From assembly GCA_012270965.1 (NCBI GenBank), contig JAAXHJ010000055.1, positions 15,345 to 79,344 on the forward strand: a DNA stretch of 64,000 nt, read 5' to 3'. The translations under genes were made by a program, and so were the position numbers. Of this stretch, positions 2,019-10,614 are shown in pieces. How positions within the stretch are numbered: position 1 is the first letter of the stretch; each line of letters starts with the position of its first letter. The notes under the pieces are model-generated. The model worked only from the letters and a program-made list of their open reading frames with translations. It made no database searches and was not told the DNA's origin. Source of the stretch: Candidatus Palauibacter poriticola. GTDB taxonomy: Bacteria > Gemmatimonadota > Gemmatimonadetes > Palauibacterales > Palauibacteraceae.

Positions 2019-4817
2019 TCAGATGGAGAGGTAGTGACTCACCTTGACGATGAAGACGTTCTCCGCGGGCGCCAGCCACAGTCCCTCGAGGTCGCGGCTG
2101 AGGTCGAAATCACCGAGCAGGACGCTCTCGCGGCGCGCGTGCTGCCACACGAGGAAGAGTTCGGATCCCGGGCGGTACTCCCAGCGGAACACCGCGTTGC
2201 CTCGCAGCGAACGGATGTTGAAATCGCGGTCCCGGGTCGAGTAGTCCAACTCGCCGTCGCCGTTGAAGTCGAAGTAGCGCACGCCGTCGAAGGCACACGT
2301 CGTTCCGTCCTTGCATCCCGTGACGACGCCGTTGAAGCGGTAGGCCCGCCCCTCGGCATGGTCGAGAAAATCGAACGACGCGGCGGCCGCGAGTTGGCGG
2401 TAGCCTCGGTAGTCGCCCGAGGTGAGCAGCGGTTGCGCGTAGAGCTGCAGGCTGAGGTCGGGTGTGAACGACACGTTCAGGCGCGTCTCCATCGAGAACC
2501 CGGTCCGCCGGAGATCGCCGAACAGGTACCGGTCGCCGTACGTCGGCGCGTAGGGCAGCGTGGTCGACCGGGCCACGAATTGCGCTCCGTCGCGCCGGTC
2601 GTTGTAGTTCGGATTCAGGGACACCCGCCAGTTCGGAAGCGGCCGGTAGGAGATGTTCACGCCGGTGCTCATGTCGTATCCGCGCCCCCGCGCCGCCACT
2701 CGATACGAGAGGTTCGGCGACACGTGGAATGACCGGCTCCGATCCGTGTTCGCGTCCGCCCGGACGTTGAACTCCGCGGGTTCGGTCATGAGCGGGCCGC
2801 CACGGGTCTGCGTATCGGATTGCGATTCCGGCGAGTACGAGAAGTTGAGGTTGAAGCCCCAGTTGTTTAGGAAGGTGAACCTTCCGCTGACCCACGCGGC
2901 TCCCGTGTCGTAGGACCGGCGCCAGTGGTCCGGCCCCCGCACCTTCTCCAGGAGCGAATGACGGAAGTTGTGGAAGGTGAAGAGGCTGATGTTGTAGTTG
3001 CGGAACAGGTCGCCCGGCCGGATCTCGCGATATCCGATGCGGGCCCCCACGTCGAGCCGTTCGCCGGTGGTCAGGAAACCGAAGTCGTTGACCTCGAAGC
3101 CGGGGGTCTGCTGGCCCGCCCAGGTACCCCACGTCCAGTGCTCGCCCTCCTTCTCGAGTTGTACGCGCCAGTCGCTCCCGAAGAGGGACGTGGCGGTGGA
3201 GTCGACCGCCAGGTAGGTGGCGTCGGGACGCTGATAATAGTGCGTCGGATTGCGCTGCAACCTGACGAGCGCCTCGTTCGATCCCTGGACCAAGCTACCC
3301 GAGTAGAAGCCCCACAGACGATAGTCGCGCCCGCGCGGTCCGCCCCACTGGTGCTCGAAATCGAGGCCGAAGCTGAACGCCTCCGAGGGGAGGAAGTCGA
3401 ACGATCCGTCGCCCGGCAGTTCCCGCTTCAGCCCGGTGCCGATGACGCCGACCTTGCTGGCACCCCCGCGGAAATCCTGCTGTAGCCTCAATACGGCATG
3501 CTCGGCCTGCGGCTCGGCCACGAACCGGCCCAGGGAATCGCCCTGCGCGAAGTACGCCTGCCCGCTCTCCTGCCCGGTCACCGCCGCCAAGGCCCCGACC
3601 GAGAGACCGCCGGACGTGCGGCCGGTCAGCTTGGCGGCACCGAGAATCGAGGTCAGGTTCGGGGTGTCGCGGAAGCTGGCCTCGTAGGGCCCGAATCCCC
3701 GCGGTTCCCGCCCGATCCGCCGGCTGAAGAAGAGCGCCTTGCCGCCGCCGAAGCGCCCGCCGCGCGAGCCGGCGAAGGTGAAGATCTGCGCGTCGCGCAC
3801 GAAGAAGGGGCGCTTCTCCGGAAAGAAGGTCTCGAAGGCCGTGAGGTTGATGACCTCCGGGTCCACCTCGACTTGGCCGAAGTCGGGATAGACGGTCGCG
3901 TCGAGGCTGAACGCGGAGCCGATCCCCATGCTCACGTCAAGGCCGCCGCGAGGTTCCATCTCGGTGCCGTCGAACAGCGGGTTCCCCGGTGCCGCGGGCG
4001 CGGTGTGGTACTGCGACACCGCGAAGGGCCGGACCTCGAGCCTGCGGCTCGATCGAGGGAGTTGCAGCCCATCGATCGTGCCGAACTGGCTGACTCGCCC
4101 CCGGGCCGTGCGCGACTGCAGGGCGAAATAATCCGTCTCGTTCGTCTCGAGACGCCGACGCTCGAAGTTGATCCCCCAGGTCTGCATGCCGGGGCGGGCC
4201 TCATAGCGGATCTGTGAGAGCGGGATCCGCATCTCCACGGTCCACCCCTGGTCGTCGACCTGCACGGCGGAGTCCCAGATCGCGTCCCAGTTCACGTCTT
4301 CCCGGGTATCGCCGAACAGGTACCGATCCGTCTCGGCCCCCGCGGCGCTGACCTCGAACTCGTAGCCGGTCAGCCCGTCCCGGTTCGGATCGAGGGAGAG
4401 CTTGAAGGAGTCGAAGGAACCGCGTTCATCCCGGCGTGTGAGGCGCGCCCGGATCACGCTCGGGTCGCTCTCGTACATGCGGGCGGCGACGTAGATCGCG
4501 CCGTCGTCGAACACGACCCGCACCTCGGTCGGCTCGGACGGTTCCGCGCCCTCCAGAGGGACCCCCTGAACGAAGTCCGTGATAATGGGGGCCGGCTGCC
4601 AGGCGGGGTCGCCGAGCCGGCCGTCGATCGAGAGCGCGCCCTCGCGGCGCACCGCCTCCACGGCCGCCGGCGCCACGCCGCCTCTGAAGACGGTCGCCCC
4701 CGGCCCCTCGGGCGGTGAGAGTCCCTCCTGTTGCGCGGACAGCCCCCACCCAACTCCGGATATCGCGAGAGCCGCGGGGAGGAGCACCGCGCGGCCCGCC
4801 AGATGCAAGTTTTTCAT
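2019..4817 (-). CDS. Secreted/outer-membrane protein with CBM9-like N-terminal domain and DUF5916 domain
   Basis: Signal peptide, IDGRLGDPAW, EMRIPLSQIRY, DATVYPDFGQVEVD, FFPEKRPFF, C-terminal LRWEY-like FRWEYRPGSELFLVW. Start taken at ATG 4817. Confidence 0.8.
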   Translation of the reverse strand: MKNLHLAGRAVLLPAALAISGVGWGLSAQQEGLSPPEGPGATVFRGGVAPAAVEAVRREGALSIDGRLGDPAWQPAPIITDFVQGVPLEGAEPSEPTEVRVVFDDGAIYVAARMYESDPSVIRARLTRRDERGSFDSFKLSLDPNRDGLTGYEFEVSAAGAETDRYLFGDTREDVNWDAIWDSAVQVDDQGWTVEMRIPLSQIRYEARPGMQTWGINFERRRLETNETDYFALQSRTARGRVSQFGTIDGLQLPRSSRRLEVRPFAVSQYHTAPAAPGNPLFDGTEMEPRGGLDVSMGIGSAFSLDATVYPDFGQVEVDPEVINLTAFETFFPEKRPFFVRDAQIFTFAGSRGGRFGGGKALFFSRRIGREPRGFGPYEASFRDTPNLTSILGAAKLTGRTSGGLSVGALAAVTGQESGQAYFAQGDSLGRFVAEPQAEHAVLRLQQDFRGGASKVGVIGTGLKRELPGDGSFDFLPSEAFSFGLDFEHQWGGPRGRDYRLWGFYSGSLVQGSNEALVRLQRNPTHYYQRPDATYLAVDSTATSLFGSDWRVQLEKEGEHWTWGTWAGQQTPGFEVNDFGFLTTGERLDVGARIGYREIRPGDLFRNYNISLFTFHNFRHSLLEKVRGPDHWRRSYDTGAAWVSGRFTFLNNWGFNLNFSYSPESQSDTQTRGGPLMTEPAEFNVRADANTDRSRSFHVSPNLSYRVAARGRGYDMSTGVNISYRPLPNWRVSLNPNYNDRRDGAQFVARSTTLPYAPTYGDRYLFGDLRRTGFSMETRLNVSFTPDLSLQLYAQPLLTSGDYRGYRQLAAAASFDFLDHAEGRAYRFNGVVTGCKDGTTCAFDGVRYFDFNGDGELDYSTRDRDFNIRSLRGNAVFRWEYRPGSELFLVWQHARRESVLLGDFDLSRDLEGLWLAPAENVFIVKVSHYLSI

Positions 4818-4920
4818 GTAGGGCCAGACACGCCTTCGCGCGCGATCGTTTAATCGCGTCCGATCCAAGTTTCCCCGGCGTTCAGGTGACGCTAGTTTGA
4901 TGTCCGCCGGGGCATCCGGA

Positions 4921-4969
4921 CGTGGTGATTTGAGGCGGATTGCAGCCACGCAAAACAATCGCTAAAGAG
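4921..4969 (+). ncRNA. SAM-II (SAM_alpha-type) riboswitch aptamer
   Basis: CGTGGTGATTTGAGGCGGATTGCAGCCACGCAAAACAATCGCTAAAG. P1 pairs 4921-4927 with 4943-4950; pseudoknot GCG-G-AUUG pairs with CAAUCGC; conserved GAUUU, UUGCA and GCUAAA. Lies directly upstream of metH. Confidence 0.88.
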
Positions 4970-4973
4970 CCAC

Positions 4974-5011
4974 GCCCCGGGCGCGATTCTTTGGCGGCCG
5001 GGGTTTTTTTT
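4974..5011 (+). terminator. Intrinsic terminator forming the riboswitch expression platform
   Basis: Stem (G)CCCCGG 4974-4980 with CCGGGG(T) 4998-5004, followed by 8 T (5004-5011), ending 13 nt before the metH GTG. Confidence 0.8.
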
Positions 5012-5023
5012 GAGGGGAACGTC

Positions 5024-8000
5024 GTGTCCGAAGGGCGAGAACAGCGCGTCACACGGATTCGGGAGTCGCTCGAGCGGCGCATCCTCCTGATGGACGGCGG
5101 CGCGGGAACGATGATCCAGCGGCTGGGCCTCGACGAGGCGGCCTATCGCGCGGGTCCGCTCGCGGATCATCCGCAGCCCCTGTTCGGGAACCACGATGTG
5201 CTGTGCCTCACTCGTCCCGACGAGATCGCGTCCCTCTACCGGGGCTACCTGGAGGCGGGGGCCGACTTCGTCACGACGAATACCTTCAACGCCCAGGCCA
5301 TCTCCCAGGCGGACTACGGCATCTCCGCCGAGGCCGGGAACGCCCGCCTCATCCACGACATGAATTGCTCGGCGGCGCGGATCGCCCGGCATGAAGCCGA
5401 TGAGGCGACGCGGGCGGATCCCTCGCGGCCCCGCTTCGTGCTCGGGAGCATGGGGCCGACCAATCGGACCGCCTCTCTCTCGCCGGATGTGGAGAACCCG
5501 GCGTTCCGCGCCGTCTCCTTCGACGAACTCGCCCGCGCCTATCGACAGCAGGCGGAGGGACTCGTCGAGGGCGGCGCCGACGTGCTGCTCGTCGAGACCG
5601 TGTTCGACACGCTCAACGCGAAGGCGGCGATCTTCGCCATCCTCGAACTCGAGGCGGACCTCGCCGAGCCGCTGCCGATCGCGGTCTCCGGCACGATCAC
5701 CGACCTCTCGGGGCGGACGCTGTCGGGGCAGACGGTGGAGGCGTTCTGGCTCTCGATTCGGCATGCGGACCCCCTCTTCGTCGGTCTCAACTGCGCGCTC
5801 GGAGCGGAGGAACTCGAGCCCTACGTCGCGGAGCTCTCCGCCGTGGCCGATGTTCCCGTGAGCTGCCACCCCAACGCGGGCCTCCCGAACGAGTTCGGGG
5901 GCTACGACGACACGCCAGACCACATGTCCGACCTGCTGGGGGAGTTCGCGGACCGCGGGCTCCTCAACCTCGTCGGCGGCTGCTGCGGGACGGAGCCGGC
6001 GCACATCCGGGCCCTGGCGGAGCGCATGGAGGGCGTACCCCCGCGACGGATTACCGCCATCGAGCCGCTGCCCCGCTTCTCGGGTCTCGAGCCGCTGGCG
6101 ATCCGGCCGGACACGCTGTTCGTGAACATCGGCGAGCGCACGAACGTCACGGGCTCGGCCCGCTTCGCGCGTCTCATCCGGGAGGACGATTTCGACGAGG
6201 CGGTCGAGGTCGCGCGCGACCAGGTCGTCAACGGGGCGCAGCTTCTCGACGTGAACATGGACGAGGGCCTCCTCGACTCCGAAGCCGCCATGACGCGTTT
6301 CCTGAACCTCATCGCGGCGGAACCCGACATCGCCCGCGTCCCCACGGTCATCGACTCCTCACGCTGGGAGGTCATCGAGGCGGGGCTGAAGTGCACGCAG
6401 GGCAGAGCGGTCGTGAACTCGATCTCGCTCAAGGAGGGGGAGGAGGCGTTTCTCGAACAGGCGGCCCTCATCCGCCGCTACGGGGCCGGCGTCATCGTCA
6501 TGGCTTTCGACGAGCGGGGGCAGGCGGACACGGTGGACCGCAAGGTGGAGGTCTGCGGCCGCGCCTACGGCCTCCTGCTCGGCGCCGGTTTCCGGCCCGG
6601 CGAGATCATCTTCGATCCCAACGTCTTCGCCGTGGGAACGGGAATCGCGGAACACGACGAGTACGGGGTCGCCTTCATCGAAGCAGTGCGCCGGATCAAG
6701 AGCGAGCTTCCCGGCGCGATGACGAGCGGTGGGATCAGCAACATCTCCTTCTCCTATAGGGGAAACGACGCCGTAAGAGAGGCGATGCACACCGCCTTCC
6801 TGTACCATGCGATCGCGGCCGGACTCGACATGGGGATCGTGAACGCGGGACGGCTCCCCCTCTACGACGACATCGACCCGGAACTGCTCGAAGCGGTGGA
6901 GGATGTCCTGCTCGCCCGCCGGTCGGGAGCGACGGAGCGACTGACGGACCTCGCGGGCCGGATCCGGGACGAGGGGATCGAGACCCGGGTGGACGACGCG
7001 TGGCGCTCGGAGGGCGTCGAGGCGCGGCTCGAGCACGCGCTCGTGGAGGGGATCGTCGAGCACATCGAGGCGGATGCCGAGGAGGCGCGCCTCCTATACG
7101 GCAAGGCGCTCCCGGTCATCGAGGGGCCGCTCATGGCGGGGATGAATCGCGTCGGCGACCTGTTCGGGAGCGGGCGCATGTTCCTGCCGCAGGTCGTGAA
7201 GTCGGCGCGGGTGATGAAGCGGGCCGTCGCCTTCCTCGTCCCCCACCTGGAGGCGGAGAAGGAGGGGAAGGCGGCGGGGAAGGGAACGATTCTCCTCGCG
7301 ACGGTGAAGGGGGACGTCCACGACATCGGGAAGAACATCGTCGGCGTCGTCCTGCAGTGTAACGGCTACGACACCGTGGATCTCGGCGTCATGGTCCCCC
7401 CGGACCGCATTCTCGCGGAGGCCCGGGCCCACGGCGCGGACGTGATCGGGCTCAGCGGCCTGATCACGCCGTCGTTGGACGAGATGGTGCGCGTGGCGAG
7501 CGAGATGGAGCGGCAGGCGTTCGAGGTGCCTCTCCTCATCGGAGGCGCGACGACGTCGCGGAAGCACACGGCGGTCAAGATCGAGGAGCGGTACTCGGGG
7601 GCGACCGTGCACGTGCTCGACGCCTCGCGCGCGGTGGGGGTCGTGGGGAAGCTCCTGGGCGACGACGGCGGGGCGGAGTTCGTGGAGCGGACGCGCGCCG
7701 AATACCGGCGCGTGCGTGCGGAATACCGGGGGATGAGACGCCCGCTCACCACGATTGATCGAGCCCGCGCGAACCGGCTTGCGGTCGATGCGGCCGTGGC
7801 GGTGCCGTCGCCGCGGGAACCCGGCGCGCATGTGTACGACCCGTTTCCGCTGGAGGAACTGGTCGGCTACATCGACTGGACTCCGTTCTTCCAGACTTGG
7901 GAGATAAGGGGTCGCTTCCCCCGGCTGCTCGACCATCCCGAGCGGGGGGCGGCGGCGCGCGCGCTGTACGACGATGCCCGCCGGCTGCTCGACGAGATCG

Positions 8001-8773
8001 TCGGAGACGGATCCCTCACGGCGCGAGCGGTCGCGGGGCTGTATCCGGCGAACGCCCGCGGGGACGACATCGTCCTCTTCGCGCCGGGCGAAGGGGCGCC
8101 GGGCGAAGGGGCGCCGGGAGATGGGCGTCGCGAGTTGCTCCGCGTGCCCCACCTCCGGCAACAGATGGACCGCTCAACGGGCGCGAACGTCAGTGTGGCC
8201 GACTTCGTCCTCCCCGAGACGGTGGGCGCCGCCGACTGGAGCGGCGCCTTCGCCGTGACGGCCGGGATCGGCCTGGAGGCGCTCTGCGCCCGCTTCGAGG
8301 CGGCCGTGGACGACTACCGGAGCCTGCTTGCGAAATCGCTCGCCGACCGGCTGGCGGAGGCCCTGGCCGAGCGTCTGCACGAGATCGTGCGCACGGACCT
8401 CTGGGGCTATGCGCGGGACGAGGCGCTCGACAACGAGGCGCGGATCGCCGAGCGCTACGTCGGGATCCGTCCGGCCCCGGGTTATCCGGCGTGTCCCGAC
8501 CACTCGCAGAAGGCGCTCCTCTTCGACCTGCTCGACGTGGAGCGTCGTCTCGGGATCACCCTCACGGAGAACTACGCCATGCATCCCGCCGCCTCGGTGT
8601 CCGGCTGGTACTTCGCGCGGCCGGAGGCGCGGTACTTCGGTCTGGGCCGCATCGGGCGCGATCAGGTGAAGGACTACGCCGCGCGCAGCGGGATCTCGCT
8701 CGCCGAGGCGGAGCGCCGCCTCTCGCCCAACCTGGCGTACGACCGGGATCCGGTGCCGGAGGCGACGGCGTGA
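5024..8773 (+). CDS. metH: Cobalamin-dependent methionine synthase
   Basis: [33 protein letters not shown]12-binding [12 protein letters not shown]-terminal [15 protein letters not shown] 5024 with SD GAGGGG. Confidence 0.97.
8081..8125 (+). repeat. In-frame 15-bp tandem repeat x3 ([15 protein letters not shown]) in the MetH reactivation domain
   Basis: gcgccgggcgaaggg x2 then gcgccgggagatggg. Confidence 0.85.
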
Positions 8774-10614
8774 GCGGGCGGCTGCGGGAATGGATCGAGG
8801 GCGACCGCATCCACCTGATCGATGGCGCGATGGGGACGGTGCTGTACGAGAGCGGCGTGTTCGTGAACCAGTGCTACGACGAGCTGAACCTCTCCGAGCC
8901 CGATCTGGTGCTTGGCGTCCACGCCGACTACGTGCGGGCGGGGGCGCAACTCATCGAGACCAACACCTTCGGCGCGAACCCCGTCAAACTCGAGGCGTTC
9001 GGGCTCGAGCCGTCCGCGCACGAGATCAACGTGGCGGCCGCGCGCCTGGCCCGGCAGGCGGCCGGCGGGCGCGCCGAGGTTCTCGGGGCCGTCGGCCCGC
9101 TCGGCATCCGCATCGAACCCTGGGGTCCGACGTCGGTGGACGAGGCGGCCGACCTCTTCGGGCGACAGGTCGCCGGGCTCGCGGAGGGCGGCGTCGACGG
9201 CTTCATGCTCGAGACCTTCTCCGATCTCGATGAACTGCTGCAGGCGGTGCGGGCGGTGCGGACGGTCGCGGGGGCGGTGCCCGTGTTCGCGCAGATGACC
9301 TTCGGAGACGCGGGCCACACGGAGTACGGTTCCACGATCGAGGCCGCGGCGGCGGCGCTGGAAAGCGCCGGGGCGGACGTCATCGGCCTTAACTGCTCGG
9401 TCGGCCCCTCCTCCATGTTGTTCGGCGTCGAGCGCATGGTGGCGGCCACCTCGCGGCCGGTGTCCGCGCTGCCCAACGCGGGGCTGCCGCGCGACATCGG
9501 CGACCGGAAGATCTATCTCGCGAGTCCGGAATACATGGCCCGCTACGCCCGGCGCATGGCGGAGACGGGTGCCCGCTTCGTGGGAGGGTGCTGCGGGACG
9601 TCGCCCGAACACACGCGCCTGACGGCGACGCTGCTGGGAACCGACGGCCCGGGACCGGCTCGCGTGTCCGTCGCCTCCCCGGGCGAGACCGGTGCCCAGG
9701 CGGCGAGCGAGCCGACTCCGCTAGCGGACCGCTCCGCACTCGGACGCCGGCTCGCGCGCGGCGAGTTCGTGGGGGCGGTGGAGCTGACGCCGCCGCGCGG
9801 GTGGGATCCGAGCGAACTGCTGGCGGGAACCCGCCGGCTCCGCGACGCCGGCGTGCACGCCGTCCACATCGTCGACGGCCCCGCGCACCGGAGCCGCATC
9901 GCCTCGCTCCCCGCCGCGATCGTCATCGAACGCGAACTCGATATGGAGACCGTCCCGCACTACGGCTGCCGCGACCGCAACATGCTCGGCATGCTGAGCG
10001 ACCTCCTGGGCGCGGCCGCCGCCGGCCTCCGCAACGTCGTCCTCGTCACCGGCGACCCCCCGCGCGGCGGCCCCTACGACACGGGCGGCGTGTACGACAT
10101 CGACAGCATCGGTCTCACGAACATCGTCCGGCAGTTGAACCTCGGGCTCGATCCGGGTGGGAGTTCGATCGGCGCCCCGACCTCGTTCGTGAAGGGGGTC
10201 GCCGTGAATCCCGGAGCTGTCGACCCGGAGGAGGAGATCCGGCGTTTCGCCTGGAAGGCCGAGGCGGGCGCGGACTTTGCCGTCACGCAGCCCATCTTCG
10301 ACCCCGGCAGGTTCCTCGCCTTCGCCGGCGAGATCGAAGGTTTCGGCGTGCCGCTCGTCGTGGGTATATGGCCCCCGATTTCGCTCGAGAACGCCGAGTT
10401 CCTGGCGCACGAGGTGCCCGGAGTCGACGTGCCTGCGGAGGTGCTGGAGCGAATGGCGCGAGCCCGGGAGCGCGGAGTCGAAGCGGCGGCGCGGGAGGGT
10501 GTCGCCGTGGCTCGCGAGGTGCTGGAAGCCGTGCGGCCTCATGCCGCGGGCGCCTTGGTCAGCACCCCCGGGAACGAAGTCGACCGCGCCGCCGCCGTCC
10601 TGGCCCAGCCATGA
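8770..10614 (+). CDS. yitJ: Bifunctional homocysteine S-methyltransferase / methylenetetrahydrofolate reductase (YitJ-like)
   Basis: GTG overlaps the metH stop (GTGA). [27 protein letters not shown]; C-terminal [29 protein letters not shown]. Confidence 0.9.

Follow-up and report, generated by a model that had tools for sequence, protein, structure and literature searches.

A predicted SAM-II transcriptional OFF riboswitch in the metH-yitJ leader of a Palauibacter-like member of the Gemmatimonadota

Layout of the metH-yitJ leader

The window analyzed here, a 64,000-nucleotide (64-kb) stretch of Candidatus Palauibacter poriticola contig JAAXHJ010000055.1, carries the methionine-biosynthesis genes metH and yitJ behind a leader that combines an aptamer of the S-adenosylmethionine (SAM)-binding class SAM-II with an intrinsic terminator. 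All features described below lie on the forward strand unless stated otherwise. The first gene, metH (5024-8773), encodes a cobalamin-dependent methionine synthase of 1249 aa that is full-length, has all five expected Pfam domains (S-methyl_trans, Pterin_bind, B12-binding_2, B12-binding and Met_synt_B12) and whose alignment to relatives starts at residue 1. Its GTG start at 5024 follows a Shine-Dalgarno-like GAGGGG at 5012-5017 (together 5012-5026). The second gene (8770-10614) encodes a yitJ-like bifunctional homocysteine S-methyltransferase/methylenetetrahydrofolate reductase (Pfam S-methyl_trans and MTHFR). The GTG start of yitJ overlaps the TGA stop of metH as GTGA (8770-8773), suggesting translational coupling, and because no terminator-like site was found between the two genes we regard them as one operon.

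We scanned the whole window against Rfam with cmscan and added a permissive local scan over 4800-5100. The SAM-II model (RF00521, SAM_alpha) matched 4912-4985, a span that includes flanks, with 45.1 bits (gathering score, 36; E = 6.3e-7 over the whole window and 2.9e-9 in the local scan), and was the sole Rfam match above gathering score in the 64 kb. A base-by-base check and the Rfam structure line agree on a 6-bp P1, C4921-G4950 through U4926-G4945 (CGUGGU 4921-4926 with GCCACG 4945-4950), enclosing the loop that gives the 5’ strands of the pseudoknot. Within that loop, L1 (GAUUUGA, 4927-4933) is the same as the Rfam consensus, the P2a strand GGC (4934-4936) is partnered by GCC (4969-4971), and, from the sequence, the P2b strand UUGC (4940-4943) is partnered by A4965, A4964, C4962 and G4961. 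The 3’ strand of the pseudoknot thus spans 4959-4971, with P2b as GC-U-AA at 4961-4965. We mapped the pseudoknot with the description of crystal structure 2QWY (PMC3303485), in which the uridine left out of P2b pairs with the SAM adenine. U4963 is skipped in P2b of the window, like U44 in 2QWY, and by this analogy would be the equivalent of the adenine-pairing uridine; likewise, U4929-U4931 of L1 would be the counterparts of the 2QWY triplex uridines U10-U12. Neither GAUUUG (4927-4932) nor GCUAAA (4961-4966) deviates from the Rfam consensus at the predicted ligand-contacting nucleotides. The window aptamer therefore has every sequence-level hallmark of the SAM-II family. Two related identities were rejected: the SAM-V model (RF01826) matched nothing in 4800-5100 at E-values up to 10, and RF01726, the model for long-loop SAM-II, reached 29.8 bits, below its gathering score of 44. 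The Rfam scan gave no SAM-I match in the window.

Between the aptamer and the metH start lies a GC-rich hairpin followed by a T8 run. The hairpin (4974-5004, -22.6 kcal/mol) has an outer stem, CCCCGG 4975-4980 with CCGGGG 4998-5003 plus G4974-U5004, and an inner stem, CGC 4982-4984 with GCG 4994-4996, set off from the outer one by a 1x1 mismatch; the U8 tract (5004-5011) was identified from the sequence and by a terminator scan. An alternative helix joins the two modules. Positions 4959-4969 of the pseudoknot 3’ strand also form the 5’ strand of an antiterminator whose 3’ strand, UUCUUUGGCGG (4987-4997), lies within the terminator, in its apical loop and inner 3’ stem, so that the two structures overlap in the inner GCG (4994-4996) only. 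Checked base by base, all 11 pairs are present, three of them G-U: U4959-G4997, C-G, G-C, C-G and U4963-G4993, then three A-U pairs, G4967-C4989, A-U and G4969-U4987. Folded alone, 4959-4997 adopts the antiterminator hairpin at -19.7 to -20.2 kcal/mol, and the same hairpin is the minimum free energy (MFE) fold when the transcript ends at 4997, with the terminator 3’ strand still unmade. Inside its loop, a small GCCC/GGGC hairpin in the MFE fold holds three of the six nucleotides of the terminator 5’ strand. The duplex between tail and hairpin has an energy of -16.3 kcal/mol in the window, compared with -10.6 +/- 2.1 for shuffled hairpins.

Upstream of P1, a -35-like TTTCCC (4870-4875) and a -10-like TAGTTT (4893-4898) separated by a 17-nt spacer make up a probable promoter (4870-4898), judged by its motifs; a generic sigma-70 promoter scan found nothing. 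The neighboring gene, which lies outside the switch on the minus strand (2019-4817), starts at ATG 4817 and encodes a secreted DUF5916/CBM9 protein of ~930 aa whose signal peptide is clear (MKNLHLAGRAVLLPAALAISG); the 979-aa open reading frame (ORF) listed for this gene over-extends into the riboswitch region. Because 4818-5023 is a divergent intergenic region, we rejected the idea that the terminator serves this upstream gene.

The window MetH shares 92.8% identity with its Candidatus Palauibacter irciniicola counterpart and 82-90% with those of other Palauibacter and Gemmatimonadota metagenome-assembled genomes (MAGs), which have near-identical leaders. Palauibacter belongs to the Gemmatimonadota, within the FCB group, and the DNA runs containing the window sequence are coral-reef and sponge metagenomes. 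An earlier note, made from the letters of this DNA alone, had described a SAM-II aptamer with an intact pseudoknot, an 11-bp antiterminator with G-U pairs, a CCCCGG/CCGGGG terminator with U8, control of metH-yitJ and a probable Gemmatimonadota host. Each of these descriptions agrees with the results above, including the Rfam comparison it had suggested, and the terminator hairpin extends further than the note had it.

Spread and conservation among relatives

We retrieved relatives through MetH-related loci and by two DNA-pattern scans, the short-loop pattern being run on a collection of species-representative genomes. In the MetH-based retrieval, seven of the eight Gemmatimonadota loci, and two from Neomarinimicrobiota, had the same aptamer upstream of metH; the remaining Gemmatimonadota locus (L003, MAG SMAG_U16038) had no match to SAM-II or any other Rfam family within 1.5 kb upstream of metH. 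The short-loop pattern identified at least 119 further copies. Among the matches listed, 84 were in Gemmatimonadota, 29 in Latescibacterota, 1 in Calditrichia and 3 in Myxococcota/Bradymonadia, with 2 unclassified. The 113 unique leaders analyzed are from Gemmatimonadota and Latescibacterota, plus a few of Calditrichia and Myxococcota; one further aptamer, whose flanks were too short for inclusion among the leaders, brings the FCB-type aptamers to 114.

A hairpin with a U-rich tail followed the aptamer in 103 of the 113 leaders. Across these 103, the 16 nt around GCUAAA formed a duplex with the hairpin at a mean of -13.9 kcal/mol, compared with -7.9 for shuffled tails, -9.1 for shuffled hairpins and -10.2 for reversed tails, and in 95 the partner segment extended to the terminator 3’ strand. 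We then aligned the 66 leaders that have a proximal terminator (MAFFT, sequence only). Antiterminator cells were paired at 78.1%, falling to 37-57% after sliding by 1-3 columns; five pairs and 25 cells were changed on both sides, and the covariation score was reached by 0 of 500 shuffles. Column pair 13/39 occurs as A-U, G-C and C-G, 5/49 as U-A, U-G and C-G, and 6/48 as C-G and U-A. Compensatory series run from UCGC/GCGA through CCGC/GCGG to UGC/GCA, and the window’s AAAG/CUUU is replaced by AAAC/GUUU in one relative (L086), with AAAAAG/CUUUUU also seen. The antiterminator is thus conserved with compensatory changes in relatives, a survey that the earlier note had proposed. Terminator cells in the same alignment were paired at 76.5%, and at 41-47% when slid, so by comparison of sequences the antiterminator appears as well supported as the terminator. 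As the leaders are related by descent, their counts are not to be read as probabilities.

The aptamer itself varies in a paired manner. P2a was paired at 322 of 342 positions in the 114 FCB-type aptamers (7-49% with the 3’ strand shifted) and covaries to ACC/GGU in a Neomarinimicrobiota copy (L007). In alpha-proteobacteria P2a covaries to CGGCC/GGCCG, CGGUC/GACCG and CGACC/GGUCG; for that set we report paired combinations alone, a fixed-offset count being blurred by a 1-nt difference in tail register. We also observed that the 3x3 internal loop separating P2a from P2b (4937-4939 with 4966-4968) has an outer position that covaries like-with-like across the 114 aptamers (A/A, G/G, C/C) and a middle position that is U-A, G-C or G-G, a sequence pattern that may reflect non-canonical pairing within the pseudoknot.

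In 96 of the 113 leaders a TAnnTT box precedes P1 by 21-27 nt (shuffles, 18.7 +/- 3.6). In Latescibacterota leaders the box is accompanied by a canonical TTGACA at 17-nt spacing, and in Gemmatimonadota leaders by a TTTC-type -35 (TTTCCC-17-TAGTTT in the window), an arrangement that resembles Bacteroidota promoters.

The first gene downstream of the 113 leaders was metH in 52, a yitJ-like gene in 16 and another gene in 45. Rough ORF clustering broke these 45 down into ~29 Cys/Met-metabolism pyridoxal-phosphate enzymes (metY/Z-like), 5 PALP-domain enzymes, 4 homoserine dehydrogenases, 3 Zn-dependent dehydrogenases, 2 helix-turn-helix (HTH) genes, 1 metK and 1 without assignment. All first downstream genes save the two of HTH type belong to methionine/SAM biosynthesis or are plausibly linked to it. 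The HTH-type genes stand behind the aptamer in Bradymonadia and Myxococcales, without an obvious terminator; a Zn-dependent dehydrogenase stands behind it in Latescibacterota and metK in Calditrichia (the unusual downstream genes are at L126:4691-5467(+), L163:3403-3894(+), L129:1306-2481(-) and L164:1913-3070(+)).

The terminator is distributed unevenly among these genes, preceding the coding sequence in 48 of the 52 leaders of metH but in only 6 of the 16 of yitJ. Where it is missing before yitJ, ~10 nt separate the tail from the start codon, as in translational switches of the classical type; soil Gemmatimonadales supply eight yitJ leaders with the same aptamer and no terminator (L166, L168, L170, L175, L179, L183, L185 and L188). 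Latescibacterota metY-type leaders carry two tandem terminators behind one SAM-II aptamer, the loop of each (CUUUUUAG or GCUUUUGUGGC) being complementary to the GCUAAAAAG tail (L095:3373-3428(-), L120, L130, L147-L149, L158, L173, L177, L194, L195 and L197).

A kinetic termination model and its alternatives

From the aptamer match, the helices and their energies, and their conservation and covariation, we infer SAM binding, an order of folding and termination itself, as follows. Transcription would begin roughly 10-15 nt upstream of P1, and P1 (4921-4926/4945-4950) would fold first. With SAM bound, the 3’ tail (4959-4971) would be kept in the H-type pseudoknot (P2b UUGC/GC-U-AA, P2a GGC/GCC), U4963 pairing with the SAM adenine and the L1 uridines making a triplex. 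With the tail locked in this way, the downstream RNA would be free to fold the 4974-5004 hairpin, which with U8 would release RNA polymerase before 5024. When SAM is scarce, the tail would be free, and 4987-4997 would pair with 4959-4969 on emergence to form the 11-bp antiterminator. This helix would occupy the terminator’s inner GCG and by steric hindrance keep the outer CCCCGG/CCGGGG from closing, while its loop would also trap part of the terminator 5’ strand in the GCCC/GGGC hairpin. Read-through would then produce metH and the translationally coupled yitJ. Because the two folds are nearly isoenergetic, the decision would be kinetic and co-transcriptional. We put the probability that the element is a SAM-II-class transcriptional OFF riboswitch controlling the metH-yitJ operon at roughly 85%.

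Transcription of such leaders is visible in a sponge metatranscriptome (X25), available as assembled unitigs of related strains and not as reads. One unitig, 98% alike, spans 4916-5002 (88 nt), and no contig coverage lies upstream; the start of coverage at 4916, together with the TAnnTT box, agrees with transcription starting a short way upstream of P1. The metatranscriptome contains at least three strain variants of 4916-5157 (leader and metH start), 98%, 92% and 88% alike, and therefore related Palauibacter-like populations transcribe the leader in the host. We considered and rejected the unitig as a terminated small RNA (sRNA): two downstream unitigs overlap it by 30 nt (4973-5002) and first differ at 5003, and because the variants diverge there, the end at 5002 is read as a strain branch or graph break and not as a 3’ end. 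Three RNA runs whose species label matches a DNA run with the window sequence (X24, X26 and X27) contained no reads on the region.

Several observations weigh against the switch as proposed. P1 with the terminator (-34.3 kcal/mol) is more stable than P1 with the antiterminator (-31.6 kcal/mol), so that equilibrium favors the terminator even without SAM, and the unconstrained MFE of the full leader likewise contains the terminator; given this slight preference, the choice must fall during transcription, and kinetic control is needed. The earlier note had held the antiterminator to be incompatible with the terminator. That holds for the shared inner GCG, whereas the outer six pairs of the terminator have no nucleotides in common with the antiterminator. 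Exclusion of the outer stem would come partly from pseudoknot geometry, a topological argument and not a computed result: formed on top of the antiterminator, the outer stem would create a linkerless pseudoknot across the 11-bp helix, which we regard as ruled out on steric grounds. Taken alone, the window shows a complementarity that is no more than moderately unusual, as 24 of 2000 shuffled hairpins match its duplex energy. A few relatives have the hairpin with a poor U tract (e.g., L083, L140 and L144), and, because leaders share ancestry, Wilcoxon p-values and shuffle counts overstate their independence. Finally, the metatranscriptome unitigs derive from related strains, and the end at 5002 is not evidence of termination. 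The mechanism proposed in the note, in which SAM would turn the operon off through the terminator, is well supported: the alternative helices and their comparative covariation bear it out, with SAM binding and termination as its predicted parts.

The equilibrium preference would also suit an alternative in which the hairpin and U8 form a constitutive attenuator, with a fixed terminated fraction and a stable riboswitch-containing sRNA, SAM acting through RNA stability or translation. Such a route has been proposed for the Sinorhizobium meliloti metA SAM-II element, which has a downstream terminator and SAM-dependent sRNA stabilization, and for which no SAM-II-driven antiterminator was predictable (Scheuer et al. 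2022, PMC9373788). In the window, however, the antiterminator is the MFE fold of the nascent transcript to 4997, and across the 66 leaders a helix built on the pseudoknot’s own 3’ strand covaries, a conservation left unexplained if the terminator is unregulated. We therefore consider constitutive attenuation improbable, although it is the alternative that fares best.

Control at translation, alone or in addition, would have the purine-rich tail AAAGAG (4964-4969) serve as a ribosome-binding element occluded by the pseudoknot. The structural literature treats SAM-II as such an occluding switch on the metX model (PMC10907184), and the ~10-nt distance from tail to yitJ start in the Gemmatimonadales leaders L166, L168, L185 and L188 conforms to it. 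The window is built differently: the metH start codon (5024) sits 55 nt beyond the tail, its own GAGGGG (5012-5017) lies downstream of the terminator and outside both alternative helices, and there is no in-frame start near 4975-4985. We judge this arrangement very unlikely here. Equally hard to sustain is a view of the 4959-4969/4987-4997 complementarity as an incidental match between a U-rich loop and an A-rich tail, any switching then running through another fold such as the aptamer-disrupting MFE: the modest z-score of the window taken singly and a full-leader MFE that pairs the tail non-natively with the P1 loop region instead of in the antiterminator would fit it, but covariation extends to positions other than A/U (UCGC/GCGA to CCGC/GCGG to UGC/GCA, and AAAG/CUUU to AAAC/GUUU), slid registers fall to 37-57% paired, and the reversed-tail and shuffled controls are weaker.

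Relation to known SAM riboswitches

The earlier note had also taken SAM-II to act mostly on translation, which would make a terminator unusual. This view finds no support in the literature or in our own sample. Many SAM-II representatives were described as carrying putative intrinsic terminators (Corbino et al. 2005, PMC1273637), the terminator-coupled form was called the commonest arrangement (Barrick & Breaker 2007, PMC2258182), and for S. meliloti metZ in vivo data, although indirect, are consistent with termination (RZ sRNA; Scheuer et al. 2022, PMC9373788). We found a terminator in 90 of 105 sampled alpha-proteobacterial SAM-II leaders. The translational-only picture stems from the structural and biophysical metX literature (PMC10907184) and not from the family as a whole. 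Terminator-coupled SAM-II is therefore already known as a mechanism, and a claim of novelty for it is not supported. The novelty is modest and lies in the host lineage (Palauibacter-like Gemmatimonadota, FCB group) and in a clear antiterminator model built by comparison of leaders. Our literature search found no paper on SAM-II together with Gemmatimonadota.

These results leave knowledge of the kind of mechanism unchanged, their main product being the antiterminator model and the phyletic spread. SAM-II has been studied almost only as a translational switch (metX), and its terminator-pseudoknot wiring has so far stood at the level of prediction; ~100 leaders now provide a covariation-backed antiterminator model in a short RNA (~95 nt) suited to direct biochemistry. 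For annotation, metH-yitJ of a Palauibacter-like sponge- and coral-associated bacterium comes under predicted SAM feedback at the RNA level, and the same predicted feedback extends to methionine/SAM genes across Gemmatimonadota and Latescibacterota.

Gemmatimonadota, Latescibacterota, Calditrichia and Marinimicrobia are grouped with Bacteroidota in the FCB group, and because these phyla share that group, the occurrence in Gemmatimonadota is an extension of the known range and not a surprise. It is conceivable, although we would sooner bet against it, that the short-loop SAM-II elements found in Gemmatimonadota, Latescibacterota, Calditrichia and Neomarinimicrobiota are a lineage apart, with a stereotyped platform particular to it, possibly ancient in the FCB group, as opposed to a recent alpha-proteobacterial transfer. 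In such a lineage, the antiterminator 3’ strand would sit in the apical loop and may block the terminator largely by topology instead of stem competition; translational and tandem-terminator derivatives occur as well. If so, the name SAM_alpha would be a misnomer, and kinetic antitermination by loop invasion would have a compact natural model in this class.

Compared with the SAM-I (S-box) riboswitches of Firmicutes, the window element shares the ligand (predicted here), the OFF logic with terminator and antiterminator, and the class of regulated gene. The gene yitJ is a classic S-box gene, and SAM-I also precedes metE/metH-type genes in Firmicutes. The folds are unrelated, a four-way junction in SAM-I versus an H-type pseudoknot in the window. 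With SAM-V (RF01826) and the translational, metX-type SAM-II, the element has a similar pseudoknot binding site in common, and translational SAM-II versions also occur within the Gemmatimonadota lineage, before yitJ. It differs from them in that the window ribosome-binding site lies outside the pseudoknot, and the SAM-V model has no match.

The closest relatives are the SAM-II elements of the Pseudomonadota. Like the SAM-II metA motif (RF00521, Corbino et al. 2005, 2QWY), the window element has a 6-bp P1, a U-rich L1, H-type P2a/P2b helices and the invariant GAUUUG...UUGC...AAAnAA...GCUAAA core, and it stands before methionine/SAM genes with a putative promoter just upstream of P1. It differs in being short-looped, with P2a only GGC/GCC compared with CGGCC/GGCCG in the alpha-proteobacterial sample, in its host (Gemmatimonadota of the FCB group, not Pseudomonadota) and in that SAM binding by the window element is a prediction. 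With the terminator-coupled SAM-II of alpha- and beta-proteobacteria, such as S. meliloti metZ, it shares an intrinsic terminator placed after P2 and before the ORF, together with a predicted logic in which the SAM-bound state terminates. The wiring from tail to terminator appears to differ. In the alpha-proteobacterial examples that we inspected, without a tally, the distal tail ACAGGCC often pairs with the terminator 5’ strand GGCCUGU, whereas the window and its FCB relatives use the proximal (U)CGCUAAA(G/A), whose partner is the terminator loop and inner 3’ strand UUUGGCG(A/G). The complementarity over controls is stronger in the FCB leaders (-13.9 vs -9.1) than in the alpha-proteobacterial ones (-12.7 vs -10.1).

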